The notes under the pieces are model-generated. The model saw nothing but the letters and a program-made list of their open reading frames with translations, was not told the origin of the DNA and did no database searches. The position numbers and the translations under genes are program-made. Positions 9,490 to 59,027 of a DNA stretch of 64,000 nucleotides are shown one piece after another (the stretch's first letter is position 1; each line of letters starts with the position of its first letter). Source of the DNA: Escherichia virus TH57; the sequence record MT446422.1, one strand, 5' to 3'.

Positions 9490-9803
9490 AAAATCGTTTA
9501 AGAGAAGATATTGCTGCGGCCTCTAATACAGATTTATTGAAATTTATTAAAGAAGCCGAGCTCGATGAAGTTAAATTGAATGGAAAAATTCATGGCTGTG
9601 ATGATTATAGCCGAGATATTCCTGATTGGAATGCTATTATTAAAATTGTCGAACGTCGTGAAAAAGCTTCTAAGAACGTTCCTAACTGTCCTATGTGTGG
9701 AACTGAACAAGTCCAGTTGATTCAATGGCGACATAATCCGCTTCAGTATAAATGTCGCATGTGTAAACACAAATTTGAGCGAGATGAAAATGGCAAAGCG
9801 TAA
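9486..9803 (+). CDS. hypothetical zinc-ribbon protein
   Basis: 105 aa; C-terminal CPMCG...CRMC. Confidence 0.5.
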
Positions 9804-10035
9804 AGAATATGTTGAGACCGCCGAAAGGGTGGTCCGTGAATTAACTCTGGCCTATTATAAAGAACACGGCAAATTTCCGGATAGTTATTCGGTATTGAAA
9901 TCTGCTTTAACTCGTTCATATAATAATATCCTTACTGAAGTGCATGATATCAGAAATGCGCACCTTAAAGAAACCGGAACAGAGCTTGACCGCTCTGAAG
10001 TATTCAAACAAGTATTAGGAATTCAAGATGTTTAA
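9775..10035 (+). CDS. hypothetical protein (nrdC.1 position)
   Basis: 86-aa ORF; true start may be a downstream in-frame ATG. Confidence 0.45.
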
Positions 10036-10291
10036 AGTATATGGCTATGATTCAAACATTCATCGTTGTGTTTTCTGCGACAATGCAAAACGTCTACTTG
10101 ACGTTAAAAAACAGCCTTACGAATTCATCAACGTGATGCCTGAAAAAGGTGTGTTTGATGATGAGAAGATTGCTCAACTCCTGGCTGCACTTGGTCGCGA
10201 ATCCCAAATTGGTTTGACTATGCCACAAGTGTTTGCTCCTGACGGAAGTCATATTGGTGGCTTCGACCAACTGCGAGAATATTTCAAATGA
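10028..10291 (+). CDS. nrdC: thioredoxin/glutaredoxin NrdC
   Basis: 87 aa, CVFC active site, near-identical to recalled T4 NrdC. Confidence 0.9.
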
Positions 10292-10455
10292 TTGAATTAA
10301 TGTTGGGTGTTTTGTATCTTATCATTGGTATTGGTTATGCTAAGACCCTAGCTAAATTAGATGATTTCGGTGCAGGTGACTTTTGCTGGTGGCTGACGTC
10401 TATGATTTGTTGGCCTTTATTTCTGGTTGGTGCTTCATTCTGGAACTTTAAATGA
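10288..10455 (+). CDS. hypothetical small membrane protein (CWP-motif family)
   Basis: 55 aa, ATGA overlap with nrdC stop; CWPLFLVG motif; not in ORF track (below 60 aa). Confidence 0.4.
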   Translation: MIELMLGVLYLIIGIGYAKTLAKLDDFGAGDFCWWLTSMICWPLFLVGASFWNFK

Positions 10456-10477
10456 TTGACGAATTTATGGTGGAATT

Positions 10478-10786
10478 ATGATTGGATTAAATGAACAGAC
10501 TATTTTTCTAGGTGATGGTACCGAAGATGACCTAGAATATAAACTCTATGAATACATGGTAGCCCTGGCGAAAGAAGAAGGTATTGACTTTGCTGTGGCT
10601 AATCCATATGGCGAGAACACCGTTGTAATCGGTGGCACTGCTTATGAAGTCCAATGGCAATACGTTGGGCTTGAATCTGAAGAATATGAAGAAGATAAGC
10701 ATGGCGATTGGCATCCGGTTGGTCCTTGGTATTGGGACGACGGTGAGCCTGATTTTGAAGTATCAAGCTATTGGAGTGACCAATGA
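10478..10786 (+). CDS. hypothetical acidic protein
   Basis: 102-aa ORF. Confidence 0.5.
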   Translation: MIGLNEQTIFLGDGTEDDLEYKLYEYMVALAKEEGIDFAVANPYGENTVVIGGTAYEVQWQYVGLESEEYEEDKHGDWHPVGPWYWDDGEPDFEVSSYWSDQ

Positions 10787-11103
10787 CTATTGAAAATGAA
10801 TTAGATGTTGATGCTGTTTTAAGCGAAATCATTGAAGACCATGATGCGTTTACCGAATCATACGAGTTTGAATTTTCGGACTACCTGGTTCCGGTTGAAT
10901 TAGGCGAATGGACACAAACCGGCAAATACCAATATCGCCAGGCAATTTATTTCAGCAAAAAACATAATGTGCATGTGGCTGTAAACGAAACTCGTACCGG
11001 CTCTTATCATACCGATTGGGACTATATGGTCCCGACTGTTGAACTGGTTAAGCTCCAAGAACGTGTCGTAACCCAAACTATCAGAGAATGGATTACGCTA
11101 TAA
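10783..11103 (+). CDS. hypothetical protein
   Basis: 106-aa ORF, ATGA overlap. Confidence 0.5.
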   Translation: MTIENELDVDAVLSEIIEDHDAFTESYEFEFSDYLVPVELGEWTQTGKYQYRQAIYFSKKHNVHVAVNETRTGSYHTDWDYMVPTVELVKLQERVVTQTIREWITL

Positions 11104-11220
11104 AACCATGGTATACCGCTCGATGGGAAACTGTCGAGCCAGAGGAACCTGTTTACAACGATTCCGAAATAGATTATAATGAACCTTCAAACAATGATTT
11201 AATCGATATGGAGTTTGGAT

Positions 11221-11394
11221 ATGAGTACCAAAATTGAAGTTGGCCGCCACAAAGGTCGTTTAATTGAACATTCACTTTACGAATTGTCGGATTCTCGTAA
11301 GTTACCCGATGAAGAATCTGCTTTAATTTTTGCCGCGGCGGATTATATCCATTGGCTTGAAGCACAACTTCGCTTTTCTGATGAGGTCTTTTAA
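11221..11394 (+). CDS. hypothetical small protein
   Basis: 57-aa ORF whose stop overlaps the next ATG; not in track. Confidence 0.35.
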   Translation: MSTKIEVGRHKGRLIEHSLYELSDSRKLPDEESALIFAAADYIHWLEAQLRFSDEVF

Positions 11395-11663
11395 TGTTTT
11401 TAGAAATTGTTAATATTCATGCTGCTCAATCAGGTTTTATGAAAGAGCTTCAAGACGCAGGATTTAAAAATGGCGATGTTATCCAGGCGTTAAGACAACG
11501 TTTTGACCCTGATGTTGAATGTAATGTTTGGGACGTTGTTGAAACAGATGAATACCTTTTTGATACCATAGAAATTGAAGGGTCATGGACTTGTATCACT
11601 GAGTATATGATAATTGATAATGGTAACGTTGAATGCCATTATCCTTGTTTTAGGATTGTTTAA
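11394..11663 (+). CDS. hypothetical protein
   Basis: 89-aa ORF. Confidence 0.5.
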   Translation: MFLEIVNIHAAQSGFMKELQDAGFKNGDVIQALRQRFDPDVECNVWDVVETDEYLFDTIEIEGSWTCITEYMIIDNGNVECHYPCFRIV

Positions 11664-11839
11664 TGAAAACTAAATTAGTCTATACTGAAAAGTTAAATGG
11701 TGCCAAGGTCTGGAAACTTCTTATCAAAGGAAGTCCTACTGACCAGTTTATGGCCACCTGTGTGGGATTGTATACTCGCCCTACCAAAAAGATGATTCGT
11801 CAATTTAAACGGTTGCATCGCTCGTTCTATAATATTTAA
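11663..11839 (+). CDS. hypothetical small protein
   Basis: 58-aa ORF, TAATG overlap with upstream gene; not in track. Confidence 0.4.
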   Translation: MKTKLVYTEKLNGAKVWKLLIKGSPTDQFMATCVGLYTRPTKKMIRQFKRLHRSFYNI

Positions 11840-11844
11840 TAAAT

Positions 11845-11869
11845 ACCCTTATCTAATAATGGTAAGGGT
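11845..11869 (+). promoter_or_regulatory. 5' UTR hairpin sequestering the gene 49 ribosome-binding site
   Basis: 7-bp stem ACCCTTA/TAAGGGT with 11-nt loop; the AAGGG SD lies in the 3' arm 6 nt before the ATG. Confidence 0.5.
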
Positions 11870-11874
11870 TTATT

Positions 11875-12348
11875 ATGTTGTTGACTGGCAAATTATACAA
11901 AGAAGAAAAACAAAAACTTTATGATGCACAAGCTGGTAAGTGTCCAATTTGCCACCGTGATTTGGACTCTGATGTTCAGGCCAACCATCTTGACCATGAC
12001 CACGAATTGAACGGGCCAAAAGCCGGTAAGGTTCGCGGGTTACTATGCAATCTGTGCAATGGAACAGAAGGGCAAATGAAGCATAAGTTCAGCCGTTCGG
12101 GTCTGAAAGGTCGTGATGTTGACTACCTGGAATGGTTGGAGAGTTTGCTTGTCTATCTGAAATCTGATTATACCGAAAACAATATTCACCCCAATTTTGT
12201 AACAGACAAAGCCAAAGAGTTTGGCCGCCTGGGGAAAGAAGAAATGATTCGGGAAATGCTTTTGAATGGTATGACTTATAATGAATCTGACACCAAAACA
12301 CAATTAATGGCTTCATTTAAGAAGCAGCTTAGAAAGAGTTTAAAATGA
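11875..12348 (+). CDS. 49: endonuclease VII, Holliday junction resolvase
   Basis: 157 aa, near-identical to recalled T4 gp49 including Zn-binding cysteines. Confidence 0.92.
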   Translation: MLLTGKLYKEEKQKLYDAQAGKCPICHRDLDSDVQANHLDHDHELNGPKAGKVRGLLCNLCNGTEGQMKHKFSRSGLKGRDVDYLEWLESLLVYLKSDYTENNIHPNFVTDKAKEFGRLGKEEMIREMLLNGMTYNESDTKTQLMASFKKQLRKSLK

Positions 12349-14162
12349 CAATTGAAAACGAAATTGAAGGATTGATTCATAAAACTAATAAAGACCTTTT
12401 AAACGAGAATGCTAATAAAGATTCTCGTGTTTTTCCAACTCAACGTGACCTTATGGCTGGTATTGTATCTAAACACATTGCCAAAAATATGGTCGCGTCT
12501 TTTATTATGAAAGCACATGAAAGCGGAATTATTCATTTCCATGATATTGATTATTCCCCTGCTCTTCCATTTACTAATTGCTGTTTAGTAGATTTAAAAG
12601 GAATGCTTGAGAACGGATTTAAGCTTGGTAACGCACAGATTGAAACTCCTAAATCAATTGGTGTTGCTACTGCAATTATGGCACAAATTACTGCACAGGT
12701 TGCTTCTCACCAATATGGTGGAACGACTTTTGCTAATGTAGACAAAGTATTTTCTCCTTATGTTAAACGTACATACGCAAAACATATTGAAGACGCAGAA
12801 AAATGGCAAATCACTGATGCATTGAATTATGCCCAATCTAAAACAGAAAAAGACGTATACGATGCATTCCAAGCTTATGAATACGAAGTAAATACTCTCT
12901 TTAGTTCAAACGGACAAACGCCTTTTGTAACCATTACATTTGGTACGGGAACTGACTGGACTGAACGAATGATTCAGAAAGCAATTCTGAAAAATCGTAT
13001 CAAAGGTCTTGGTCGCGATGGGATAACTCCTATTTTCCCTAAACTTGTTATGTTCGTTGAAGAAGGTGTTAATCTTTATAAAGACGACCCGAACTATGAT
13101 ATTAAGCAGCTTGCTCTAGAGTGTGCAAGCAAAAGAATGTATCCTGATATTATTTCAGTTAAGAATAATAAAGCTATCACCGGTTCATCTATTCCTGTTT
13201 CTCCAATGGGTTGCCGTAGTTTCTTGAGCGTATGGAAAGATTCGACTGGTAATGAAATTCTTGATGGACGTAATAATCTTGGCGTTGTAACACTGAATCT
13301 TCCTCGTATTGCATTAGATTCTTATATTGGAACACAGTTCAATGAACAGAAATTTATCGAATTGTTTAATGAGCGAATGGATTTATGTTTTGAAGCATTG
13401 ATGTGCAGAATTAGTTCCTTAAAAGGAATTAAAGCGACTGTTGCTCCTATTCTTTACCAAGAAGGTGCGTTCGGGGTTCGTCTTAAACCTGATGATGATA
13501 TAATTGAGTTATTTAAAAACGGTAGAAGTTCAGTGTCTTTGGGATACATTGGTATTCACGAATTGAATATTCTTGTCGGTCGTGATATTGGGCAGGAAAT
13601 TTTAACTAAAATGAATGCTCGTCTTAAGCAGTGGACCGAAAGAACCGGTTTTGCTTTTAGCTTGTATTCTACTCCCGCTGAAAACCTTTGTTATCGATTC
13701 TGTAAACTTGATACTGAAAAATATGGAAGTGTAAAAGATGTTACCGATAAAGGATGGTACACTAACAGTTTCCATGTTTCAGTAGAAGAAAATATTACTC
13801 CGTTTGAAAAGATTTCTCGCGAAGCACCATATCATTTCATTGCGACAGGTGGTCACATTTCTTATGTTGAACTTCCTGATATGAAAAATAACTTAAAAGG
13901 TCTTGAGGCTGTATGGGATTATGCTGCACAACATTTAGATTATTTTGGTGTTAATATGCCAGTAGATAAATGTTTTACGTGTGGAAGTACCCATGAGATG
14001 ACTCCTACTGAAAACGGATTTGTTTGTTCTATTTGTGGAGAAACTGACCCTAAAAAGATGAACACAATAAGAAGAACATGCGGCTATCTTGGAAACCCGA
14101 ACGAACGCGGATTTAATCTCGGCAAAAATAAAGAAATCATGCATAGGGTTAAACACCAATGA
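12345..14162 (+). CDS. nrdD: anaerobic ribonucleoside-triphosphate reductase
   Basis: 605 aa uninterrupted; C-terminal CxxC Zn site; T4 NrdD-like. Confidence 0.92.
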   Translation: MTIENEIEGLIHKTNKDLLNENANKDSRVFPTQRDLMAGIVSKHIAKNMVASFIMKAHESGIIHFHDIDYSPALPFTNCCLVDLKGMLENGFKLGNAQIETPKSIGVATAIMAQITAQVASHQYGGTTFANVDKVFSPYVKRTYAKHIEDAEKWQITDALNYAQSKTEKDVYDAFQAYEYEVNTLFSSNGQTPFVTITFGTGTDWTERMIQKAILKNRIKGLGRDGITPIFPKLVMFVEEGVNLYKDDPNYDIKQLALECASKRMYPDIISVKNNKAITGSSIPVSPMGCRSFLSVWKDSTGNEILDGRNNLGVVTLNLPRIALDSYIGTQFNEQKFIELFNERMDLCFEALMCRISSLKGIKATVAPILYQEGAFGVRLKPDDDIIELFKNGRSSVSLGYIGIHELNILVGRDIGQEILTKMNARLKQWTERTGFAFSLYSTPAENLCYRFCKLDTEKYGSVKDVTDKGWYTNSFHVSVEENITPFEKISREAPYHFIATGGHISYVELPDMKNNLKGLEAVWDYAAQHLDYFGVNMPVDKCFTCGSTHEMTPTENGFVCSICGETDPKKMNTIRRTCGYLGNPNERGFNLGKNKEIMHRVKHQ

Positions 14163-14629
14163 ATTACGATAGAATATATCCTTGCGATTTTATTAATGGT
14201 CCTGGCTGCAGGGCCGTTCTTTTCGTTACAGGTTGTTTGCATAAATGCGAAGGGTGTTATAATAAATCAACATGGAATGCTAGAAATGGTGTTCCATTCA
14301 CTGGTGAAACACTAGAACAATTAATTGAATGTTTGAATAATGATTATATAGAAGGATTGACTATAACTGGAGGAGACCCTCTCTATCCCGATAACCGAGA
14401 TGTTATTCACTCTGTGGTTCAAACTATTAAAAATCTTTATCCCAATAAAAGCATTTGGTTGTGGACCGGATATAAGTTTGAAGATATTAAACAACTAGAA
14501 ATGCTTAAATATGTTGATGTTATTATTGATGGGAAGTATGAGAAAAATCTTCCGACCAAAAAACTGTGGCGAGGGTCAGATAATCAGCGACTTTGGTCAA
14601 ATACCGATGGGGTGTGGAAACATGATTAA
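14159..14629 (+). CDS. nrdG: anaerobic RNR activating protein (radical SAM)
   Basis: 156 aa; CxxxCxxC cluster motif near N-terminus; ATGA overlap with nrdD. Confidence 0.9.
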   Translation: MNYDRIYPCDFINGPGCRAVLFVTGCLHKCEGCYNKSTWNARNGVPFTGETLEQLIECLNNDYIEGLTITGGDPLYPDNRDVIHSVVQTIKNLYPNKSIWLWTGYKFEDIKQLEMLKYVDVIIDGKYEKNLPTKKLWRGSDNQRLWSNTDGVWKHD

Positions 14630-14743
14630 ATTTAATTATATTATGGACACTATAAATGATATGATTTTTCATTTTGGTCCAGAATTTTATTCGCAGTATA
14701 GTTTAGTGTTTATCAATGCTTGGTTAATCAATTAAGGGTAAAT

Positions 14744-14959
14744 ATGAATAAATTTCGTAATGCTACAGCAGATATTCTGGCAAACATAACGCTTGTGTTG
14801 TTCATCGTTTGTCTGCTTATTCTGGCTATCCCGTTTGGTTTACTGTTTGTTATCATCGGTTGGTTAAGCACCAATCCTGGCCTAGAAAGCTCTGAATTCA
14901 ACAAACGAATCCAGGCTATTCATAGTACCATTGCAAAAATGATGAAGGTGAAAGAATGA
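14744..14959 (+). CDS. hypothetical membrane protein
   Basis: 71 aa from ATG with AAGGG SD; one long TM segment. Confidence 0.45.
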   Translation: MNKFRNATADILANITLVLFIVCLLILAIPFGLLFVIIGWLSTNPGLESSEFNKRIQAIHSTIAKMMKVKE

Positions 14960-15255
14960 AACGTTTTGAAGAATATGTAGCTACTAATTGGACCGCGTGG
15001 GACAAATTCGGTGATGAATGGTACTTCCACGACTGTGACCTGGACCCGAAATTCTTTGCTGATAAAGAAGAAGACCTTAAAGATATCTATGCTCTATCTG
15101 AGATTCATGGAATCAAACCGACGGTTTATTTCTCTTTCAATGACACAGGTTTCCTTATTCAGGTTTATGTCCCGTATGCAACCGCCAGCGATGAAGAAGT
15201 TATTAAAACCTGGAACTACCAAGGAGTGATTTCCTGTGGGCCAAAACTCGACTAA
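14956..15255 (+). CDS. hypothetical protein
   Basis: 99-aa ORF, ATGA overlap. Confidence 0.5.
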   Translation: MKRFEEYVATNWTAWDKFGDEWYFHDCDLDPKFFADKEEDLKDIYALSEIHGIKPTVYFSFNDTGFLIQVYVPYATASDEEVIKTWNYQGVISCGPKLD

Positions 15256-15553
15256 GATTGAAATTTATGGTATCCCCGAAGAAGTCGGTCGATGCCCTGG
15301 TTGTATGCACGTAAGGAGCCTTCTGGGCTCCTTAAACCTTCCTTATACATTCTATTCAGTCCTTAACAAACAAGGCTCTGAAATCGCTTATGACAGGCCT
15401 TTAATCATGTCTTTGGCTAAGCGTGCTGGATATCCTACCCTTAACATTCGTTACCCAGTGATTTTTGTCAATGATGAAAAAATGACAAATATTCCTGCCT
15501 TTAAAACAAAACTGATATCCCTGGGGTACGACCAGGACTTAATTGAAGATTAA
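15236..15553 (+). CDS. glutaredoxin-like protein (nrdH-like)
   Basis: 105 aa from GTG with AAGGAG SD; CPGC dithiol motif; position matches T4 nrdH. Confidence 0.5.
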   Translation: MGQNSTKIEIYGIPEEVGRCPGCMHVRSLLGSLNLPYTFYSVLNKQGSEIAYDRPLIMSLAKRAGYPTLNIRYPVIFVNDEKMTNIPAFKTKLISLGYDQDLIED

Positions 15554-15620
15554 AAAGGGGTGTACAAGCCCCTTTGAACGGTGTATCATTATCCCATCAA
15601 CTACTGATGAGGAAAACAAA
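15554..15620 (+). promoter_or_regulatory. early promoter cassette with stem-loop, CATCAACTACTGA leader type
   Basis: AAAGGGG/CCCCTTT hairpin enclosing GTGTAC, then TATCAT and ATCCCATCAACTACTGATGAGGAAAACAAA ATG. Confidence 0.55.
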
Positions 15621-15803
15621 ATGGTTATTGAAGATAAAGAAATTAAACTTGACCATTATTATTCTGTAAATGGTTATCCTATACAAGTAACCAAAGTGAC
15701 TGACCAAGATGTATGGTATCGTCCTTTGAAATGGCCAGACGCTCCGTTGATGGTGTGCGACCGTAGCTTGTTCAATACAGTTGCGAAAGGACCTAAATTA
15801 TGA
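15621..15803 (+). CDS. hypothetical protein
   Basis: 60 aa from ATG right after conserved leader. Confidence 0.5.
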   Translation: MVIEDKEIKLDHYYSVNGYPIQVTKVTDQDVWYRPLKWPDAPLMVCDRSLFNTVAKGPKL

Positions 15804-17919: not shown

Positions 17920-18477
17920 ATGAACGAAATTAAATTAACCAAGAATAACTATGTAAATAATAAAGAGCTTTTGAAAGCTATTTCGGAGTGGAAACAGAAG
18001 CTGAATGCGAACACCGACCCGAACAAAATTATTCGCCAGAACGATGTTATTGGTCTGGCGATTATGCTTATAGCCGAAGGTCTTAGCAAACGTTTCAACT
18101 TCTCCGGATATACCCAATCCTGGAAGCAAGAAATGATAGCAGACGGAATTGAGGCCGCAATAAAAGGTCTTCATAACTTCGACGAAACAAAATACGATAA
18201 TCCACATGCTTACATAACAATGGCTTGCTTCAATGCTTTCGTTCAGCGTATCAAAAAAGAACGTAAAGAAATGGCAAAGAAATATAGCTACTTCGTCCAT
18301 AACGTATATGATTCACGTGACGACGATATGGTGGCTCTGGCTGATGAAACATTTATCCAGGACATCTACGACAAAATGACACAGTACGAATCCTCTTTAG
18401 TTAAAGCGCCAGGGTCTGATAAGAGCGCCAAAGATAAAGAAGGTGATTTGGATTTTTTATATGGAACATCAATTTGA
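17920..18477 (+). CDS. 55: late-transcription sigma factor gp55
   Basis: 185 aa; long stretches identical to recalled T4 gp55. Confidence 0.92.
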
Positions 18478-18694
18478 TATTACCGATTTTTTAGATAAAA
18501 TCGAGGAAGACTTTACTGCGCTCCCATATTTCATTAAACTTTATCTGCGAGACATAAAAGGTCTTCCAATTGATATCGACCCTTTAAACGTCCGGAATCT
18601 GGAATTTACTTCACCGGATAATAACGTTGATTACCGTTATCATGTGGATAATGCTAATCTATATTTTACAATTGAGTTAACTCCCAAGGATTAA
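18461..18694 (+). CDS. hypothetical protein (55.1 position)
   Basis: 77 aa from internal ATG; start uncertain. Confidence 0.4.
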
Positions 18695-18695
18695 T

Positions 18696-19007
18696 ATGCA
18701 AGCTCCAGATATTTCTCAACTGACCGATAAGCAGATTGAAGAAGCACAGGAACGTCTCGAAGAAGCGAACGCACTCGAAGCGCAGAGTCAAGCAGCAAAG
18801 ATTCTGAAAAAGAATGCTCGTGAAATTGCACGACTGAATAAGCATGCTCAAGGGGCAGTGCTGGAAAACAATTTTGAAGCATACAAATATGCTTTAGTTA
18901 AACTGCGTGGAATTTACCGCCAACCAGTTACGGAAGACCTGATTAAGTTGATGTGGGAAACTACTCGCAAACAAATTTGGGAAATCGTAAATGGCATTAG
19001 TAAATAA
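18696..19007 (+). CDS. hypothetical protein
   Basis: 103-aa helical ORF. Confidence 0.5.
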   Translation: MQAPDISQLTDKQIEEAQERLEEANALEAQSQAAKILKKNAREIARLNKHAQGAVLENNFEAYKYALVKLRGIYRQPVTEDLIKLMWETTRKQIWEIVNGISK

Positions 19008-19194
19008 ACCTTTTAAACGGCTTCTTGTTGGAGCCGCTTTCAGACTTCGCTCATACGGTAATATCTGTATCAAGCAGACCGAAACCGAATATAAAATGGT
19101 TGGTCAGTATTCTGATGGTATTTTTCAGATTGAGCCTGTGGCCAAGGTTTGGGTGGATTCACACCAACTTAAGAAATGGTGGCAACGATGGTAG
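18991..19194 (+). CDS. hypothetical protein
   Basis: 67-aa ORF. Confidence 0.4.
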   Translation: MALVNKPFKRLLVGAAFRLRSYGNICIKQTETEYKMVGQYSDGIFQIEPVAKVWVDSHQLKKWWQRW

Positions 19195-19284
19195 GATTTT
19201 ATGAAAGCGGATGTAACGAAGACGAACATCCGGATTTTTAAGCTTATGAACGACGAATAAGAAAAAGTTTAAGAGGTTTTATGA

Positions 19285-19458
19285 ATGACGAATTCGACGG
19301 ATTTTGATAAGATTAAATCTGGCAAAAATGAGATGATACTTCAATTTGAAGCCGCTCGTATTAAAGCAGAAAATGAAGGCACTATTACCCATAAGAAAAT
19401 CAAGTTCAAGTCTAATCGCGAACCTCTGTATGGTGTATTAATTGGAAAGGAAGCCTAG
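19285..19458 (+). CDS. hypothetical small protein
   Basis: 57 aa, AAGAGG SD, terminator overlaps its end; not in track. Confidence 0.35.
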   Translation: MTNSTDFDKIKSGKNEMILQFEAARIKAENEGTITHKKIKFKSNREPLYGVLIGKEA

Positions 19459-19470
19459 TGCTTCCTTTTT
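19446..19470 (+). terminator. rho-independent terminator
   Basis: AAAGGAAGC-CTAGT-GCTTCCTTT followed by TT. Confidence 0.65.
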
Positions 19471-19493
19471 GCTTTATATTCGGGATGATAAAA
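19466..19493 (+). promoter_or_regulatory. middle-type promoter upstream of 47
   Basis: TTTGCTTTAT MotA-box-like element, then GATAAAAT. Confidence 0.4.
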
Positions 19494-19514
19494 TGAACCA
19501 ACTGAGGAGAACAT

Positions 19515-19658
19515 ATGGAATTATTTTTAGGATATGTTGTGTTATTCATGGCATTCTACACATTCACACGAGCTTGTTGGATAGGATTCTTTTCTACTCC
19601 TGACGGGTTCATTTCAATAATTTTATTTTGCACTGCGATAACGGCGCTTGGCTTATGA
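19515..19658 (+). CDS. hypothetical small membrane protein
   Basis: 47 aa, GAGGAGAA SD, ATGA overlap with gene 47; not in track. Confidence 0.4.
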   Translation: MELFLGYVVLFMAFYTFTRACWIGFFSTPDGFISIILFCTAITALGL

Positions 19659-29188: not shown

Positions 29189-29190
29189 GT

Positions 29191-29257
29191 GTTTACAACG
29201 GCAAAGGACTGCCGTATGATTACTCCATCAACTGATGAATAACTTAAGGATATTAAA
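29191..29257 (+). promoter_or_regulatory. early promoter, CATCAAC leader type, upstream of imm
   Basis: GTTTAC, 18 bp, TATGAT, TACTCCATCAACTGATG leader. Confidence 0.5.
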
Positions 29258-29500
29258 ATGGAAACATTAATTGCGGGTACTGTTGTTCTGGGTGCTGGCT
29301 CTTTCTTCCTGGCTGCACTGGCATATTTTCTGCCGTGGATTATCGCACTACTGCGAGGAACCAAAAGTAATTGCGGAATCTTCTTTGTTAACCTCCTGTT
29401 AGGTTGGACAATGGTCGGATGGTTTATTGCATTTATCTGGGCACTCGTTGCTGAGCGTAAATCAAACGCACAAGTAATTATCATCAAGGAAACCAAATGA
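29258..29500 (+). CDS. imm: superinfection immunity protein Imm
   Basis: 80-aa two-TM protein with YFLPWIIA motif; downstream of 43 as in T4. Confidence 0.8.
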   Translation: METLIAGTVVLGAGSFFLAALAYFLPWIIALLRGTKSNCGIFFVNLLLGWTMVGWFIAFIWALVAERKSNAQVIIIKETK

Positions 29501-29640
29501 AGATAATTACAATTATTATACTGATTGCATTTTTTAGTATGTCAATCTATTGGGCAATAATGACTCCGCATATGATTCCAACTTTAATTTTGGGTTGGGT
29601 ATTTTTGGGGCTCCAAGCTCGCTATGAATGTTTTAATTGA
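29497..29640 (+). CDS. hypothetical small membrane protein (imm.1 position)
   Basis: 47 aa, ATGA overlap with imm; not in track. Confidence 0.4.
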   Translation: MKIITIIILIAFFSMSIYWAIMTPHMIPTLILGWVFLGLQARYECFN

Positions 29641-29650
29641 GGAAAATACA

Positions 29651-30154
29651 ATGAAAAAGTTAGCTATCGCAGCTGTTATGCTGCTATCTGGTTGTGCTTA
29701 CCAGGGCGATGTAGTTAATGTCAGTGAAATTGGTAAAGCGCGAATTGCTGCAGACCGTCAGGTGCATAATGGTTCCTTTGATTTCAAAGGTGGTACTGGA
29801 CTTATCTACAAACGCGACAACAATCAATGTGGAAACAACTGCGCAAAATATGCTCAACAAGAAATTGAGTACAAACGCGAGCAAGCTGCAAAGCATGACG
29901 AAATCATTGCCAAGCTGGAAGCAGAAACTAAGCGACAAAATGACTTGGATACTGTTAACCAGATTTCACAGGTCTGCATGTCATACATCAATATGCAGAT
30001 AAACATCATGCGCGCGGAAGCTTATCAGGCAGCGGAGACGGGTTCTCCAAAAGCCAATGAGTATCGCGATATGTATCAGCGGTCTGCTCAAAATCGTCTG
30101 AGCTATATTAATAAATGTGTGGCTAAAGAGAAAGCCCGCCAAGGTATTAACTAA
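29651..30154 (+). CDS. hypothetical lipoprotein
   Basis: 167 aa from ATG with GAGGAAAA SD; signal peptide plus lipobox LSGC; sits where T4 has 42 and beta-gt. Confidence 0.55.
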   Translation: MKKLAIAAVMLLSGCAYQGDVVNVSEIGKARIAADRQVHNGSFDFKGGTGLIYKRDNNQCGNNCAKYAQQEIEYKREQAAKHDEIIAKLEAETKRQNDLDTVNQISQVCMSYINMQINIMRAEAYQAAETGSPKANEYRDMYQRSAQNRLSYINKCVAKEKARQGIN

Positions 30155-30177
30155 CATTAATTGCTCTAAAAATACAG

Positions 30178-30186
30178 TGATATAAT
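30178..30186 (+). promoter_or_regulatory. extended -10 promoter element upstream of uvsX
   Basis: TGATATAAT. Confidence 0.35.
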
Positions 30187-30239
30187 TATCCTATCTTAAA
30201 CCTGTGAGAAAAATATAATGGTGCCTATGGAAAAAATGA

Positions 30240-31418
30240 ATGTCTATTGCAGATTTGAAATCCCGTTTGATTAAAGCTTCTACATCCAAAATGACTGCGA
30301 CTCTTACTAAGTCCAAGTTTTTTAATGATAAAGATGTAGTTCGTACAAAAATCCCGATGCTGAACATTGCAATCAGCGGTGCACTAGATGGTGGTATGCA
30401 GTCAGGTTTGACTATTTTTGCTGGTCCGTCAAAACACTTTAAATCCAATATGGGTTTAACGATGGTCTCTGCATATATGAACAAATACCCCGAAGCAATC
30501 TGTTTGTTCTATGATTCAGAATTTGGTATCACAGAAGCCTATCTGCGTGCAATGAAAGTAGACCCGGAGCGTGTTATCCACACACCAATCCAGTCGGTTG
30601 AACAATTGAAAGTTGATATGGTTAACCAGCTTGAAGCAATTGAGCGTGGTGAAAAAGTCATTATCTTTATTGACTCAATCGGTAACATGGCGTCAAAAAA
30701 AGAAACAGAAGATGCGATGAACGAAAAAGTCGTTGGCGATATGACTCGTGCTAAATCCCTGAAATCTCTGTTCCGTATTGTTACCCCATATTTTAGTATC
30801 AAGGATATTCCTTGTGTCGCGGTTAACCATACAATCGAGACGATTGAGATGTATAGCAAAACCGTTATGACCGGTGGTACAGGTGTTATGTATTCTGCGG
30901 ACACCGTATTCATTATCGGCAAACGCCAGATTAAAGAAACTGGTAAAGAACTTGAAGGTTTCCAATTTGTTCTGAATGCCGAAAAATCTCGTATGGTCAA
31001 AGAGAAAAGTAAATTCTTCATTGATGTAAAATTCGATGGTGGTATTGACCCGTATTCTGGCCTGCTTGATATGGCAATGGAAATCGGATTTGTAGTGAAA
31101 CCGAAAGTTGGTTGGTATAACCGTGAATATCTTGATGTTGAGACCGGTGAAATGGTCCGCGAAGAAAAATCATGGCGTGCAAAAGATACTAACTGTACTG
31201 AATTCTGGGGCCCGTTGTTTAAGCACGAACCTTTCCGTGACGCAATCAAACGCCATTACCAACTGGGTGCAATCGATAGCAATGCTGTTGTTGATGCCGA
31301 AGTTGATGCGCTTATTGCCTCCAAGGTTGAAAAATACTCTGCCCCTGAAGGTAAGGCAAAACCATCTGCGGCAGATATCGAAAACGATTTAGATATGATG
31401 GAAGACCTTGATGAATGA
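30240..31418 (+). CDS. uvsX: recombinase UvsX (RecA-like)
   Basis: 392 aa; Walker A GPSKHFKS; high identity to recalled T4 UvsX. Confidence 0.95.
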   Translation: MSIADLKSRLIKASTSKMTATLTKSKFFNDKDVVRTKIPMLNIAISGALDGGMQSGLTIFAGPSKHFKSNMGLTMVSAYMNKYPEAICLFYDSEFGITEAYLRAMKVDPERVIHTPIQSVEQLKVDMVNQLEAIERGEKVIIFIDSIGNMASKKETEDAMNEKVVGDMTRAKSLKSLFRIVTPYFSIKDIPCVAVNHTIETIEMYSKTVMTGGTGVMYSADTVFIIGKRQIKETGKELEGFQFVLNAEKSRMVKEKSKFFIDVKFDGGIDPYSGLLDMAMEIGFVVKPKVGWYNREYLDVETGEMVREEKSWRAKDTNCTEFWGPLFKHEPFRDAIKRHYQLGAIDSNAVVDAEVDALIASKVEKYSAPEGKAKPSAADIENDLDMMEDLDE

Positions 31419-33565: not shown

Positions 33566-33778
33566 ATGTATAAATTAGAGAACGTAGTGTTTATTGGTTG
33601 GTTTGAAAATGGTAATATGTTTACCAAAGAAACTGCACTAGATGTTAGCGACCAAAATATGATTGAATGGGTCACAGTGCAGTATGCAGAAGTGAATAAT
33701 GCGCTGGTGAAAGCCTTTGTTAATGACAATAAAGTTTTTGAATATGATTATCGTATCCACTTATCTGAGGAAATCTAA
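33566..33778 (+). CDS. dmd: Dmd antitoxin (inhibitor of RnlA/LsoA-type toxins)
   Basis: 70 aa; VVFIGWFENGNMFTKE...YAEVNNALVKAFVNDNKV closely matches recalled T4 Dmd; position downstream of 41. Confidence 0.75.
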   Translation: MYKLENVVFIGWFENGNMFTKETALDVSDQNMIEWVTVQYAEVNNALVKAFVNDNKVFEYDYRIHLSEEI

Positions 33779-34120
33779 ATGGCTTTTAATCCAGAAGACC
33801 GCGTAAAAGTAACAATCAAAGTGAGTGCTGTTGGTGTACCATCTTTTGAACGTTCTAGCATGTTCCACCCAGCAGGTATTCACTGGTATGTCCAGAAGAC
33901 TGCTGATAACTATAATGCACTGGTTGAAGCTTTTGTTGATGACAAGCTAATTCATAAAGTAGACATGCGTAAGGGTACTGCATTGCGTAATCTGATTTTG
34001 ACCGTTGAAGCTCAACTGGTAAATGAAGAAATCTGCCTTACTGATATTGAAGCAGCTCTTCATATTGCGCGTGCTGAATATTACAACTTGACTGGTTTTT
34101 CAGTTGAAGGCGAAAAATAA
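33779..34120 (+). CDS. Dmd-like paralog
   Basis: 113 aa; shares the NALVEAFVDDKLI core with the adjacent Dmd. Confidence 0.5.
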   Translation: MAFNPEDRVKVTIKVSAVGVPSFERSSMFHPAGIHWYVQKTADNYNALVEAFVDDKLIHKVDMRKGTALRNLILTVEAQLVNEEICLTDIEAALHIARAEYYNLTGFSVEGEK

Positions 34121-37296: not shown

Positions 37297-37815
37297 ATGG
37301 CTCATTTTAATGAATGTTCACAACTGATTGCTGGTGTTGACAAAGCTGAAGAAGCTTATGACAATGCAATTATCGAAGGCACTGACCCGCTGCAGATTAT
37401 GCTTGATATGCAGAAATCATTGCAGGTCCGTTTGGCTACTGAAAAACCAGAATACAACTCACATCCAGACGAATTGGCTACCGCCGGCGATGTTGTTGCA
37501 TGGCTTCGTAACCAGAAAGATTATGTTGATGATGAATTCCGTGAACTTCTAACTTCTCTCGGTGGTATGTCTAATGGCGAGAAAGCTGCATCTAGTGTAT
37601 GGAAGCCTTGGAAAGCCCAACATGCTGAATTCCGTAATCGTCGTATTGATGAGTTGTCTCCTGAAGACCAGCTCGAAATTAAATTTGAGATGATTGACAT
37701 CCTGCACTTTGTTCTGAACATGTTCCATGGTCTTGGCCTGTCGGCAGAAGAAATCTTTAAATTGTATTACCTGAAAAATGCTGAAAACTTTGCTCGTCAA
37801 GACCGAGGTTATTAA
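37297..37815 (+). CDS. 56: dCTPase-dUTPase gp56
   Basis: 172 aa from MAHFNEC; strong match to recalled T4 gp56. Confidence 0.9.
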   Translation: MAHFNECSQLIAGVDKAEEAYDNAIIEGTDPLQIMLDMQKSLQVRLATEKPEYNSHPDELATAGDVVAWLRNQKDYVDDEFRELLTSLGGMSNGEKAASSVWKPWKAQHAEFRNRRIDELSPEDQLEIKFEMIDILHFVLNMFHGLGLSAEEIFKLYYLKNAENFARQDRGY

Positions 37816-42693: not shown

Positions 42694-44018
42694 TTAAATT
42701 TGAAGACTTGAACACAGGACAAAAAGAAGCTTTTGATTATATCACTGAAGCTATTCAGCGACGTTCAGGGGAATGTATCACTCTGAATGGCCCAGCTGGC
42801 ACAGGTAAGACCACTCTGACAAAATTTGTCATTGACCACTTAGTGCGTAATGGAGTTATGGGAATTGTGCTCGCTGCACCAACTCACCAGGCGAAAAAAG
42901 TTTTATCTAAATTGTCTGGTCAAACAGCGAATACAATCCATAGTATCCTGAAGATTAACCCGACCACATATGAAGACCAAAACGTTTTTGAACAGCGCGA
43001 AATGCCTGACATGTCAAAATGTAATGTTCTGGTTTGTGATGAAGCAAGTATGTATGACGGGTCTCTGTTTAAGATTATTCTTAACTCTGTTCCCGAATGG
43101 TGTACTATTCTTGGGATTGGTGATATGCACCAGCTGCAGCCAGTTGACCCAGGAAGCACACAACAAAAGATAAGCCCATTCTTTACGCATCCTAAGTTCA
43201 AACAGATTCATCTGACTGAGGTCATGCGAAGTAATGCTCCTATCATTGAAGTGGCGACAGAAATTCGCAATGGTGGTTGGTTCCGTGACTGCATGTATGA
43301 AGGCCATGGCGTGCAAGGTTTCACCTCACAAACCGCTTTAAAGGATTTCATGATAAACTATTTCAGTATTGTAAAAGATGCTGATATGTTGATGGAAAAC
43401 AGGATGTATGCATACACGAATAAATCAGTTGAAAAACTGAACAATATTATTCGTCGCAAGCTATATGAAACGGACAAAGCATTTTTACCGTATGAAGTCC
43501 TGGTTATGCAAGAGCCACACATGAAAGAGCTGGAATTTGAAGGTAAGAAATTCAGCGAAATTATTTTTAACAATGGTCAGTTAGTTCGCATCAAGGATTG
43601 CAAATACACTTCCACCATTCTCCGCTGTAAAGGCGAATCGCACCAGTTAGTGATTAATTACTGGGACCTGGAAGTTGAGTCAATTGATGAAGATGAAGAA
43701 TATCAGGTTGACCGCATTAAAGTTTTACCAGAAGACCAGCAACCAAAATTCCAGGCATATCTGGCGAAAGTTGCTGACACATACAAACAGATGAAAGCCG
43801 CTGGTAAACGTCCAGAGTGGAAAGACTTCTGGAAAGCGCGCAGGACCTTCTTGAAAGTTCGTGCTCTTCCGGTCAGTACAATCCATAAGGCACAGGGCGT
43901 TTCAGTGGACAAAGCATTCATCTATACTCCATGCATCCATATGGCCGAAGCTTCATTAGCGAGCCAGTTGGCTTATGTAGGAATCACACGAGCGAGGTAC
44001 GACGCATATTATGTATAA
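42690..44018 (+). CDS. dda: DNA helicase Dda (SF1B)
   Basis: 442 aa; Walker A GPAGTGKTT; extensive identity to recalled T4 Dda. Confidence 0.93.
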   Translation: MIKFEDLNTGQKEAFDYITEAIQRRSGECITLNGPAGTGKTTLTKFVIDHLVRNGVMGIVLAAPTHQAKKVLSKLSGQTANTIHSILKINPTTYEDQNVFEQREMPDMSKCNVLVCDEASMYDGSLFKIILNSVPEWCTILGIGDMHQLQPVDPGSTQQKISPFFTHPKFKQIHLTEVMRSNAPIIEVATEIRNGGWFRDCMYEGHGVQGFTSQTALKDFMINYFSIVKDADMLMENRMYAYTNKSVEKLNNIIRRKLYETDKAFLPYEVLVMQEPHMKELEFEGKKFSEIIFNNGQLVRIKDCKYTSTILRCKGESHQLVINYWDLEVESIDEDEEYQVDRIKVLPEDQQPKFQAYLAKVADTYKQMKAAGKRPEWKDFWKARRTFLKVRALPVSTIHKAQGVSVDKAFIYTPCIHMAEASLASQLAYVGITRARYDAYYV

Positions 44019-46052: not shown

Positions 46053-46123
46053 TGTACAAACTCTTGGGGTCGGAGTATAATGACCCCACTGGAGAATAAA
46101 CTTATTAACCAAGAGAGAAAATT
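46053..46123 (+). promoter_or_regulatory. early promoter cassette with inverted repeat around -10
   Basis: GTGTAC; GGGGTC-GGAGTATAAT-GACCCC; CACTGGAGAATAAA leader. Confidence 0.55.
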
Positions 46124-54045: not shown

Positions 54046-54622
54046 AACATGGGAGCATCTGAAAAAGATGCCCTCCTTTCTTTATACAAAGGAAGACTTA
54101 ACACCTGAATCCCTACAAAAGATTGTAGACACGGCCAGGTATTCATTGCGTAAAGACCCAGGTCAAGACCGTGAGCAAGTCATGCAAAGATGTATGGTGG
54201 CTACAATGGCAGAACAAGCTATTGCTAAATGGACCTCCGGCTTTTTATGCGGCGGTGATGAAGATTACGATAATCCTTATTCCTTTGCATTTGATGTAGT
54301 TTCGAAGGAAGGGGTAAGAATCGAAGTCAAGACCCACCAGTCTGGTTCCAAATGGATATCCGTGCATACTGGTAGTCAGGGCGATTATCCACATGGTTAC
54401 GGGATTAATCTTGGTCCTTTTATGCAACACAAGCTTGCTGACCTTATGATTATGTTTAATGTAAAAGAGACTATCAAAGGTTATAGATTTAAACCAAAAT
54501 TCCTTGCTGGGCCTGGGGCTTTTGTTCCTGAGTCCGGTCTTGTGCAGAAGTCACAAGGGGATGGCTGGTACCTCCGTTCTTGTTCAGAAGAAAAATTCCC
54601 CTATCACCGGTTTACAAGCTGA
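54029..54622 (+). CDS. hypothetical protein (possibly denB-like by position)
   Basis: 197-aa ORF between rIIB and ndd; no motif recognised. Confidence 0.45.
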   Translation: MIQKSKTWEHLKKMPSFLYTKEDLTPESLQKIVDTARYSLRKDPGQDREQVMQRCMVATMAEQAIAKWTSGFLCGGDEDYDNPYSFAFDVVSKEGVRIEVKTHQSGSKWISVHTGSQGDYPHGYGINLGPFMQHKLADLMIMFNVKETIKGYRFKPKFLAGPGAFVPESGLVQKSQGDGWYLRSCSEEKFPYHRFTS

Positions 54623-56530: not shown

Positions 56531-56603
56531 TGTACAAACTCATGGGGTCAGAGTATAATGACCCCACTGGAGCACAAAACTTTAACTTACTGAGGAAATT
56601 AAT
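56530..56603 (+). promoter_or_regulatory. early promoter cassette with inverted repeat around -10
   Basis: GTGTAC; GGGGTCA-GAGTATAAT-GACCCC; CACTGGAGCACAAAAC leader. Confidence 0.55.
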
Positions 56604-57053
56604 ATGACTACTTACATGACCCGTCGTGACGTACTGAATGCTGGCGCTACCACTGTTGCTCACATCCATAATGGCAATTATGTTGTAGGGCGTCCAACTA
56701 AAGAAGCTATCACCCAACCAGGTTTTTATTTCGTGGTTAAAGGTGAAGGCGAATCACGTATTGTTGCTGCACGTTTTTACGTTGGTAACCAACGTTCACA
56801 ACAAGGGTTTGACACTGTATTAAGTCACATCCGCAAACAGCGTTCACAACTGTCGCGCACAATGGCGAACAATGGTGTTATCTATGAAGTCCTGTTTGTT
56901 CCAGTTTCTAAAATGAAACCTTTGACAACTGGTTATGGTAAAGGTCAAATTGCGATGGCGTTCACACGCTCACATAGTTCTGATTGTCAGACCCTTTCAG
57001 AAATGAATCGCATGCTTGCTGATAACTTTAAATTCATTTTGCAGAGCTATTAA
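56604..57053 (+). CDS. ndd: nucleoid disruption protein Ndd
   Basis: 149 aa; [14 protein letters not shown]...[12 protein letters not shown]...[11 protein letters not shown] matches recalled T4 Ndd. Confidence 0.9.
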
Positions 57054-57054
57054 T

Positions 57055-57135
57055 ATGAGTAATTTCCATAATGAACATGTGATGCAATGGCATCGTCATA
57101 ATCTGAAATTAACCGGCGTCTTTGGGCGCCCTTGA
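57055..57135 (+). CDS. stp: Stp peptide (PrrC anticodon-nuclease activator)
   Basis: 26 aa [26 protein letters not shown], near-identical to recalled T4 Stp; not in track. Confidence 0.8.
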
Positions 57136-57142
57136 GGAAAAT

Positions 57143-57298
57143 ATGAATAAATTTGTTTATAGTGTAGCTTTTTTCTGTTGGTCATTTGTATTTGTTGGAA
57201 CATTATTAACTGGAGAAACTTCAGTATTTTCACAGGCGATTGCTCAAGGTACCGTAGCGGTTTTATCACTATTTAAATTATTGGATAAAAATGATTAA
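57143..57298 (+). CDS. ac: Ac-like small membrane protein (positional)
   Basis: 51 aa, membrane; position between stp and 52; same length as T4 Ac; not in track. Confidence 0.5.
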   Translation: MNKFVYSVAFFCWSFVFVGTLLTGETSVFSQAIAQGTVAVLSLFKLLDKND

Positions 57299-57431
57299 GA
57301 AAATCTTGGGCTACTCATTAGCCCTTGCTACCTTATTGGTGGCGCTGTATTATGGAGTTGTATTTGCATTAGTGCAGGTTGTGCTTTTTATTTCTGATGC
57401 TATAATGGCAGTACATTCGTTAATCTGGTAA
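57291..57431 (+). CDS. hypothetical small membrane protein (52.1 position)
   Basis: 46 aa; not in track. Confidence 0.4.
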   Translation: MIKKILGYSLALATLLVALYYGVVFALVQVVLFISDAIMAVHSLIW

Positions 57432-57439
57432 GGTGATAT

Positions 57440-58819
57440 ATGTCTGACGTTTTAAGTATGATGTCCAAACAGTTCAGTGATTCCATGGGGTCCCTTAACC
57501 CACGCAGTCTAAAAGACATTATTGATGTGGAAGCATTGTCATATGCTATCTACACTGTGGAAGGTCGTGCCATCCCAAACATGATTGATGGTTTTAAACC
57601 AGTTCACAGATTTGTTATGGCGAGAGCATTAGACCTGGCTCGTGGCGATAAGAATAAATTCCATAAGGTTGCCTCCATTGCAGGTGGCGTAGCTGATTAT
57701 GGTTATCACCATGGCGAAGCATCAGCGGAAGAAGCAACTTCTGGTCTGGTCGCAACATATAAAAATGAATACCCCATGTTTGATGGGCAAGGCAACTTTG
57801 GTTCCAGAATGGTGCCAGAAGCATCATCAGCTCGTTATGTATTCGCAAGGGTTTCAAAGAACTTTTATAACTTGTTTAAGGATACAGAATATGCTCCGGT
57901 CCATCCTGATGAAGAACATAAGCCTCCTGCTTTTTATCTTCCTGTTATTCCTACTGTATTACTTAACGCCACTTCTGGGATTGCTGTTGGCTTCGCTACT
58001 GATATTCTTCCTCATTCGTTCCAGGACGTCAAGGAAGCTGTTAAAGCTATCGTGGAAGGTCGTGAGCCGGTTGCTCCGAAAGTAAAATATCCAGAATTCC
58101 GTGGTGAAGTTGTTGAGCTGGAAGAGCCTGGTAAGTATGAGCTTCATGGCACGTACAAAATGACTTCCAGGACTCAAATGGAAATTACTGAAATCCCGGT
58201 CCAATGGAACCTGGAAAAGTATACAAGTAAAATCCTGGACCCACTGGAAGAGAAAGGTTTTATCACCTGGAAAGATAACTGTGGCGAGCATGGTTTTGGG
58301 TTTAAGATTAAATTCCGTAAGGAATACAAGCTGGATGGCACTGAAGAAGAAAATCATGAGAAAATCATGAAAGACTTTGGTCTGATTGAGAAGCTCTCCC
58401 AGAACTTAACTGTACTTAATCACAAAGGCAAATTGGCTGAATACACCAACACGCTTGACCTGATTCGCGATTTCGTTGATGTCCGTAAGACTTATGTCCA
58501 AGTGCGAATTGACAGTAAGATTAAAGAAACTGAAGCCGCGTTTAAACTGGCCCGAGCAAAAGTCTTCTTTATTAAAGAAGTGATTGATGGTAAGGTTGTT
58601 ATCCAGGGGAAACCTCGTAAGAAGTTGATTGAGGAGCTCCAGGCGAGTGAAATATATGGCGATTATGCAGAGAAGTTAGTGGCGATGAACATCTACCATA
58701 TGACCTCTGATGAAGCCAAGAAGCTTGCAGACGAAGCAAAGGCTAAGAAAGCCGAGCATGAGTACTGGAAGACAACTGATGTTAAAACTGAATACCTTAA
58801 TGATTTGGAGGCTCTATGA
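57440..58819 (+). CDS. 52: DNA topoisomerase II medium subunit gp52 (GyrA-like)
   Basis: 459 aa; matches recalled T4 gp52. Confidence 0.9.
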   Translation: MSDVLSMMSKQFSDSMGSLNPRSLKDIIDVEALSYAIYTVEGRAIPNMIDGFKPVHRFVMARALDLARGDKNKFHKVASIAGGVADYGYHHGEASAEEATSGLVATYKNEYPMFDGQGNFGSRMVPEASSARYVFARVSKNFYNLFKDTEYAPVHPDEEHKPPAFYLPVIPTVLLNATSGIAVGFATDILPHSFQDVKEAVKAIVEGREPVAPKVKYPEFRGEVVELEEPGKYELHGTYKMTSRTQMEITEIPVQWNLEKYTSKILDPLEEKGFITWKDNCGEHGFGFKIKFRKEYKLDGTEEENHEKIMKDFGLIEKLSQNLTVLNHKGKLAEYTNTLDLIRDFVDVRKTYVQVRIDSKIKETEAAFKLARAKVFFIKEVIDGKVVIQGKPRKKLIEELQASEIYGDYAEKLVAMNIYHMTSDEAKKLADEAKAKKAEHEYWKTTDVKTEYLNDLEAL

Positions 58820-58914
58820 GTTTTGGAGTTGAGTTTGCATTGCTTTGTATTTTCGCGGCAATCGCGGGTGTGATTGTTGGTATGTTTATTGGTAATAAGA
58901 TAGATAAAGACTAG
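58816..58914 (+). CDS. hypothetical small membrane peptide
   Basis: 32 aa, ATGA overlap with gene 52 stop; not in track. Confidence 0.3.
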   Translation: MSFGVEFALLCIFAAIAGVIVGMFIGNKIDKD

Positions 58915-58936
58915 GGCCCTTCGGGGTCCTTTTTTA
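58913..58936 (+). terminator. rho-independent terminator
   Basis: GGGCCC-TTCG-GGGTCC (one mismatch) followed by TTTTTT. Confidence 0.65.
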
Positions 58937-58948
58937 TTTTAAAAAGTA

Positions 58949-59027
58949 GTGTACAAGTCCCTTGACCCGATGCATAATGATTCCATACTGAGTTACACAC
59001 TGAATCATAAAAATTTTGGAGAATAAA
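58949..59027 (+). promoter_or_regulatory. early promoter cassette, CCATACTGAGTTAC leader type
   Basis: AAAAAGTAGTGTAC, CATAAT, GATTCCATACTGAGTTACAC...GGAGAATAAA ATG. Confidence 0.55.

Follow-up and report, generated by a model that had tools for sequence, protein, structure and literature searches.

The stp locus and its predicted transcription unit

The 64-kb stretch of DNA analysed here (the window) belongs to a T-even-type phage of the genus Gaprivervirus (Tevenvirinae). A short ORF lies on the plus strand at 57055-57135. It begins with ATG, ends with TGA and has 26 codons plus the stop, and its translation is the stp product. No open frame was found on the reverse strand at these positions. 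The gene order ndd-stp-ac-52.1-52 is the same in the window, in T4 and in Gaprivervirus VR25. T4 Stp also resembles the window gene in its position between ndd and ac, its strand and its operon context upstream of gene 52. The features of the locus are listed in Table 1.

Table 1. Genes and predicted transcription signals around stp in the window
Feature	Position	Strand	Evidence and remarks
Early-promoter-like site TGTACA-N17-TATAAT	56531..56559	+	Promoter scan; 45 nt upstream of the ndd ATG
ndd, nucleoid disruption protein, 149 aa	56604..57053	+	PF06591 232 bits; phrog_1102 E 5e-60; 61% identity to T4 Ndd
stp, 26 codons + TGA	57055..57135	+	PF08133 55.3 bits; phrog_6763 E 2e-19
ac homologue, 51-aa membrane peptide, acridine resistance	57143..57298	+	phrog_2501 E 2e-21; 47% identity to T4 Ac, equal length
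52.1 homologue, 46-aa membrane peptide	57291..57431	+	PF24129 DUF7396 72.6 bits; 85% identity to T4 gp52.1
Gene 52, DNA topoisomerase II medium subunit, 459 aa	57440..58819	+	PF00521 260 bits; phrog_551 E 1e-201; 67% identity to T4 gp52
32-aa hydrophobic ORF MSFGVEFALLCIFAAIAGVIVGMFIGNKIDKD	58816..58914	+	Overlaps the gene 52 stop (ATGA); last ORF before the terminator
Intrinsic-terminator-like hairpin AGGGCCCTTCGGGGTCCT then TTTTTATTTT (T-run)	58913..58940	+	Terminator scan

The ATG at 57055 is the sole start codon common to the window and T4. A TTG at 57016 would give a 39-aa product, but this alternative start was rejected because it falls within ndd and because the T4 frame is closed by a stop 7 codons 5' of the ATG.

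A single nucleotide separates the ndd TAA from the stp ATG, and just a weak GAG is present 8 nt upstream of the latter; stp is therefore probably translated by coupling to ndd. The junction is slightly different in T4, where the ndd stop and the stp ATG overlap (TAATG). At the other end of the gene, the ribosome-binding site of ac (GAGG) overlaps the stp stop codon.

The promoter-like site upstream of ndd is one of a set. On the plus strand of the window, TGTACA-N16-18-TAWAAT is present at six positions (5831, 41573, 46053, 54957, 55544 and 56531), where 0.16 occurrences are expected. Both strands together hold seven matches, a total reached by 0/100 shuffles. Several of the sites are alike beyond the motif, for example TGTACAAACTC.TGGGGTC.GAGTATAAT at 46053 and 56531. 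The motif is probably the early-promoter type of this phage, and the site at 56531 is likely to start the transcription unit that contains stp. The hairpin at 58913-58940 is likely to end the ndd-stp-ac-52.1-52 unit; the next early-promoter-like site, a near-match to the motif, is at 58950. In this arrangement stp would come second among the genes of an early unit consisting of the 56531 site, ndd, stp, ac, 52.1, 52, the 32-aa ORF and the terminator at 58913. T4 stp has been classed as a delayed-early gene (PMC3014915).

The 32-aa hydrophobic ORF that follows gene 52 is 100% identical in VR25 and Escherichia virus TH54, 97% identical in VR20 and 43-65% identical in other T-even contigs. VR25 RefSeq has no feature annotated at its position.

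Identification of the stp gene

The peptide was compared with protein family profiles. Residues 1-25 aligned with profile positions 1-25/26 of Pfam PF08133, the 'Anticodon nuclease activator family', with a score of 55.3 bits (E 4.4e-15); the curated gathering cut-off of this family is 25 bits. The peptide also matched positions 1-26/26 of phrog_6763, 'activator of host PrrC lysyl-tRNA endonuclease' (E 2e-19). A tblastn search with the peptide matched 969 phage records, and in 39 the identity was 99% or above. A reading of the letters without database searches (the sequence-only reading) had placed a 26-codon stp gene at this site, and the exact translation, both profile matches and the breadth of the tblastn matches bear this out.

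TH54 is the nearest record to the window, with 97.6% and 95.7% DNA identity in the two large pieces compared. VR25, VR20, VR7 and SP18 have about 93-94% DNA identity to the window. The Stp peptides of Gaprivervirus VR25, VR20, VR26 and TH54 and of a 170,523-bp IMG/VR T-even contig are 100% identical and have the same flanking genes. The window phage does not differ from VR25, VR20, VR26 and TH54 in its Stp protein and is a distinct isolate by DNA.

In the RefSeq record of VR25 (NC_028925) the identical 26-aa peptide is annotated as 'activator of host PrrC lysyl-tRNA endonuclease'. Because this annotated peptide is the same and stands in the same gene order, the stp gene of the window is an ordinary, known gene that is already annotated in close relatives. 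Several GenBank relatives list a 'hypothetical protein' or nothing at the stp position. The identification is useful for annotation, as genes of 81 nt are often missed.

Nucleotide substitutions in stp were counted by the Nei-Gojobori method. Between the window and T4, pS is 0.63 and pN is 0.15, values that are indicative only with 26 codons. Between the window and the stp copy of the Kagunavirus siphophage RP180, described below, pS is 0.74 and pN is 0.17. Because synonymous sites are near saturation relative to T4 and replacement sites are not, the substitution pattern indicates that the Stp peptide is under purifying selection. By HMM match, synteny and selection, the ORF at 57055-57135 is identified as the orthologue of T4 stp.

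Comparison with T4 Stp

The Stp peptides of the window and T4 (NP_049878) are both 26 residues long, and 20/26 residues (77%) are identical. Residues 1-11, 14, 16-18 and 21-25 are the same in the two peptides, and the six differences are F12W, Y13H, N15H, T19L, K20T and Q26P.

The location of the substitutions can be compared with genetic data on T4 Stp. Both activities of the T4 peptide are carried by the N-proximal 18 residues, and removal of the last 8 codons lowers both only moderately (PMC3014915). T4 loss-of-activation mutations cluster at residues 4-14, and the first 18 residues were almost absolutely conserved in the nine T4-type phages then known (PMC3014915). In the window 15/18 of these residues are the same as in T4. 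F12W, Y13H and N15H are the exceptions, and the first two fall inside the 4-14 cluster of loss-of-activation (suppressor) mutations. The description of the peptide as near-identical to T4 Stp in the sequence-only reading is therefore overstated, given 77% identity and three changes in the functional N-terminal segment. The flanking genes provide a scale for this divergence. Ndd, Ac, 52.1 and gp52 span a wide range of identity to their T4 counterparts (Table 1), and by that measure the divergence of Stp from T4 is ordinary orthologue divergence, within the range of the neighbouring genes.

The peptide with W12, H13 and H15 is the same in 39 GenBank records and 5 IMG/VR contigs. Its distribution marks W12/H13/H15 Stp as an allele fixed in Gaprivervirus-type phages and not drift. 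Position 12 is aromatic (F or W) in all variants recovered, in a survey that used a DNA pattern forcing residues 3-10 to be invariant, so that variation at those residues was invisible to it.

Repair and DNA modification genes

In T4, polynucleotide kinase (Pnk), along with RNA ligase 1 (Rnl1), repairs the tRNA that is cut by PrrC (PMC3014915; PMC2610378). The sequence-only reading held that this pair, encoded by pseT and rnlA, probably lies elsewhere in the genome. A tblastn search with VR25 PseT and RnlA found no match in the window, which ends about 7 kb past stp. Their absence from the window is expected, because T4 synteny puts both genes about 26-30 kb beyond the window end. In VR25 both repair genes are annotated, with pseT at 135.8-136.7 kb, rnlA at 139.1-140.2 kb and stp at 166.4 kb. 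TH54 has an intact 301-aa PseT and an intact 378-aa RnlA, which are 77% and 92% identical to the VR25 proteins. From these relatives, the window phage itself very probably carries pseT and rnlA. The proposal thus finds backing in TH54 and VR25, and the window itself yields no copy of either gene.

The sequence-only reading also argued that retention of stp implies that this phage meets Prr-type defence. That argument is unsound. Far from defending against PrrC, Stp triggers it. Because Stp sets PrrC off, exposure to PrrC would select against stp or for the repair enzymes, so retention of stp says nothing direct about PrrC exposure. Indeed, what defined T4 stp was a set of mutations rescuing pnk- or rli- phage when the host is prr+ (PMC3014915). 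The benefit that keeps stp is presumably anti-restriction, or some other role. Complete resistance to type I enzymes has been ascribed to T4 (PMC3874165), which makes an anti-restriction benefit of Stp puzzling even in T4.

The window was examined for genes of T4-style DNA modification. T4 gp42 (dCMP hydroxymethylase), beta-gt and alpha-gt all lack a homologue in the window, where the flanking genes are nevertheless present (gp43, an imm-like ORF, uvsX, gp47 and gp55). Neither gp42 nor beta-gt is found at 29189-30240, between the imm-like ORF (29258-29500) and uvsX (30240-31418). A 176-aa lipoprotein-like ORF (29624-30154) occupies the imm-uvsX interval. Likewise there is no alpha-gt at 18462-19655, between gp55 and gp47. 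The gp56 dCTPase (37297-37812) and denB (ending at 54619) are present. No thymidylate-synthase-family ORF was found anywhere in the window. Gaprivervirus has been described as lacking the hmC synthase, and a 2025 paper calls the base modification of the genus unknown (PMC12115623). If the DNA is not hypermodified as in T4, an inhibitor of type I enzymes could be of real use to this phage, and restriction inhibition by Stp may matter more.

Two neighbouring ORFs on the plus strand of the window match Dmd, the T4 antitoxin against RnlA/LsoA, 33566-33778 with 57% identity and 33821-33970 with 34% (E 1.5e-5). This result suggests a tandem Dmd paralogue.

Stp-like peptides in siphophages

The core SN[FY]HNEHVM is also encoded by Kagunavirus and Webervirus siphophages. 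The Kagunavirus peptides (25 aa) and the Webervirus/Rtp-type peptides (35-37 aa, phrog_28068) have the slightly longer core SN[FY]HNEHVM[QR][FW] in common with Stp of the window. They differ from it in phage family and in genomic context. An Stp-encoding T1-like phage (Rtp) was noted earlier (PMC2610378).

Raoultella phage RP180, a Kagunavirus, encodes an unannotated 25-aa Stp at 43056-43133 of MK737937.1, and 24/25 residues are identical to T4 Stp. The gene is preceded by a terminator-like hairpin, a promoter-like TTGACT/TATTAT pair and a GGAG ribosome-binding site. Between the T4 and RP180 copies pS is 0.74 and pN is 0.04 (Nei-Gojobori). Because synonymous sites are saturated, RP180 stp is not a recent transfer. 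The same peptide was found in four further IMG/VR contigs, of which the two full-length ones are 43-44 kb.

Webervirus and related T1-like phages encode 35-37-aa peptides of the form MSKKNPYST-SNYHNEHVMRWHWQKLKERYLARQGK, which, in Stp numbering, have W12-H13 as in the window. This form differs from Stp of the window by an N-terminal extension of 9-11 residues and an unrelated C-terminal half. The extended type is present in Klebsiella phage KW1.2 (piece L006, 2926-3084) and in about 20 IMG/VR contigs, mostly of 46-51 kb. In KW1.2 the peptide is annotated as a 52-aa hypothetical protein with an upstream start.

A homologous three-gene cassette was observed in both Stp-bearing siphophage genomes examined, at 13561-15727 (-) of piece L045 and at 9733-11967 (+) of piece L046. 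It consists of a 376-aa metallophosphoesterase (41% identity between the two genomes), a HAD_PNKP phosphatase (58%) and a P-loop kinase-like protein (43%). The HAD_PNKP phosphatase shares 27% identity with the PseT C-terminal domain. No RnlA homologue was found in these two genomes. The cassette may be an RNA- or DNA-end healing module.

The core motif was also sought in 185,579 representative bacterial and archaeal genomes. There were 2 matches, both in unrelated contexts, where about 2 are expected by chance. A motif at chance level gives no evidence of carriage on chromosomes or plasmids.

Proposed function of Stp

T4 Stp relieves EcoprrI and EcoR124I restriction. Both of these enzymes are type IC; type IA restriction is not relieved, and modification is unaffected (PMC3014915; PMC2610378). 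In prr+ cells T4 Stp unmasks PrrC, a tRNA-Lys anticodon nuclease that the Hsd complex keeps latent (PMC3014915; PMC2610378). The statement in the sequence-only reading that T4 Stp inhibits EcoprrI and releases PrrC agrees with this literature (PMC3014915; PMC12707154). How T4 Stp inhibits EcoprrI was still called unknown in a 2025 review (PMC12707154). A sequence search of the PDB found no Stp structure; the only matches, to plant complex I subunit B15 (E 0.3-0.7), were at chance level.

Because the window peptide belongs to the same family and has 15/18 identical residues in the active segment, the T4 mechanism can be provisionally carried over to it. The free 26-residue peptide would bind the type IC Hsd complex through its N-terminal 18 or so residues. 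Binding would block DNA restriction and still permit modification. Where the type IC locus contains prrC, the same binding would unmask the PrrC anticodon nuclease, and tRNA-Lys would be cut. Healing and sealing of the tRNA would then fall to two phage enzymes, the polynucleotide kinase/phosphatase encoded by pseT and the RNA ligase 1 encoded by rnlA. Since F12W, Y13H and N15H lie within the N-terminal 18 residues, the potency or specificity of the window peptide might differ from that of T4 Stp.

As a whole, the data are best explained by a Gaprivervirus stp orthologue with probable early-unit expression and a predicted T4-like Hsd/PrrC mechanism, a reading that we hold with good confidence.

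Alternative explanations

Because the substitutions at residues 12, 13 and 15 lie in the functional N-terminal segment, and two of them in the 4-14 mutation cluster, we considered whether the gene is a true stp orthologue whose W12/H13/H15 allele has altered binding or triggering. Such a peptide might keep type I inhibition without activating E. coli PrrC, or it might be tuned to a different Hsd/PrrC variant. The invariance of the allele over 39 GenBank records and 5 IMG/VR contigs would fit this explanation, as would the occurrence of W12-H13 in the Webervirus peptides. However, the change from F to W remains aromatic, as does position 12 in every variant. Furthermore, the residues of T4 Stp required for PrrC activation are mostly also required for EcoprrI inhibition (PMC3014915), so that the two activities are hard to separate. 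Retention of pseT and rnlA in the relatives would also be expected if PrrC-type damage persists, although both enzymes have other roles too. We therefore think it unlikely that the allele is a specificity variant, and equally unlikely that it arose in an arms race with type I/PrrC systems in which restriction inhibition was kept and PrrC activation was changed or lost. W12/H13/H15 Stp is a natural allele with three substitutions in the active N-terminal region, and as such a reagent that already exists for telling restriction inhibition and PrrC activation apart.

Another explanation is that Stp is conserved for a different primary function on another conserved host target, with incidental effects on EcoprrI and PrrC. 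T4 DNA is said to resist type I enzymes completely (PMC3874165), yet the peptide is very strongly constrained. T4 Stp and the Kagunavirus Stp remain 24/25 identical despite saturated synonymous sites, and the core SN[FY]HNEHVM is found in phages of Escherichia, Klebsiella, Salmonella, Raoultella, Yersinia and Citrobacter. Against this, Stp expressed from a plasmid relieves EcoprrI and EcoR124I experimentally and is type IC specific (PMC3014915). Anti-restriction would be of direct benefit to siphophages with unmodified DNA, and an alternative Stp target is not reported in the literature consulted. A separate primary target thus seems very improbable.

Finally, a length of only 26 codons, the lack of a strong Shine-Dalgarno sequence upstream and the frequent lack of annotation in GenBank might suggest that there is no gene between ndd and ac, but the HMM E-values (4e-15 and 2e-19), the great excess of synonymous over replacement changes and the genetic and biochemical definition of the T4 orthologue leave this idea almost no probability, and because synonymous sites are near saturation while the peptide has barely changed, the comparison rules out both a short ORF that arose by chance and a spacer that is conserved but non-coding.

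Comparison with other anti-restriction systems

An stp orthologue with a T4-like Hsd/PrrC mechanism would have functional parallels in two other systems, T7 Ocr with PARIS and anti-restriction proteins with Ronin. Both follow the same logic, in which sensing of a phage protein that inhibits restriction-modification leads to the release of an abortive-infection effector (PMC12409349; bioRxiv 2023.04.06.535777). The proteins themselves are unrelated to Stp: Ocr, at about 116 aa, mimics DNA, and Stp is a peptide of 26 residues. The likeness is one of functional analogy only, and not of family membership.
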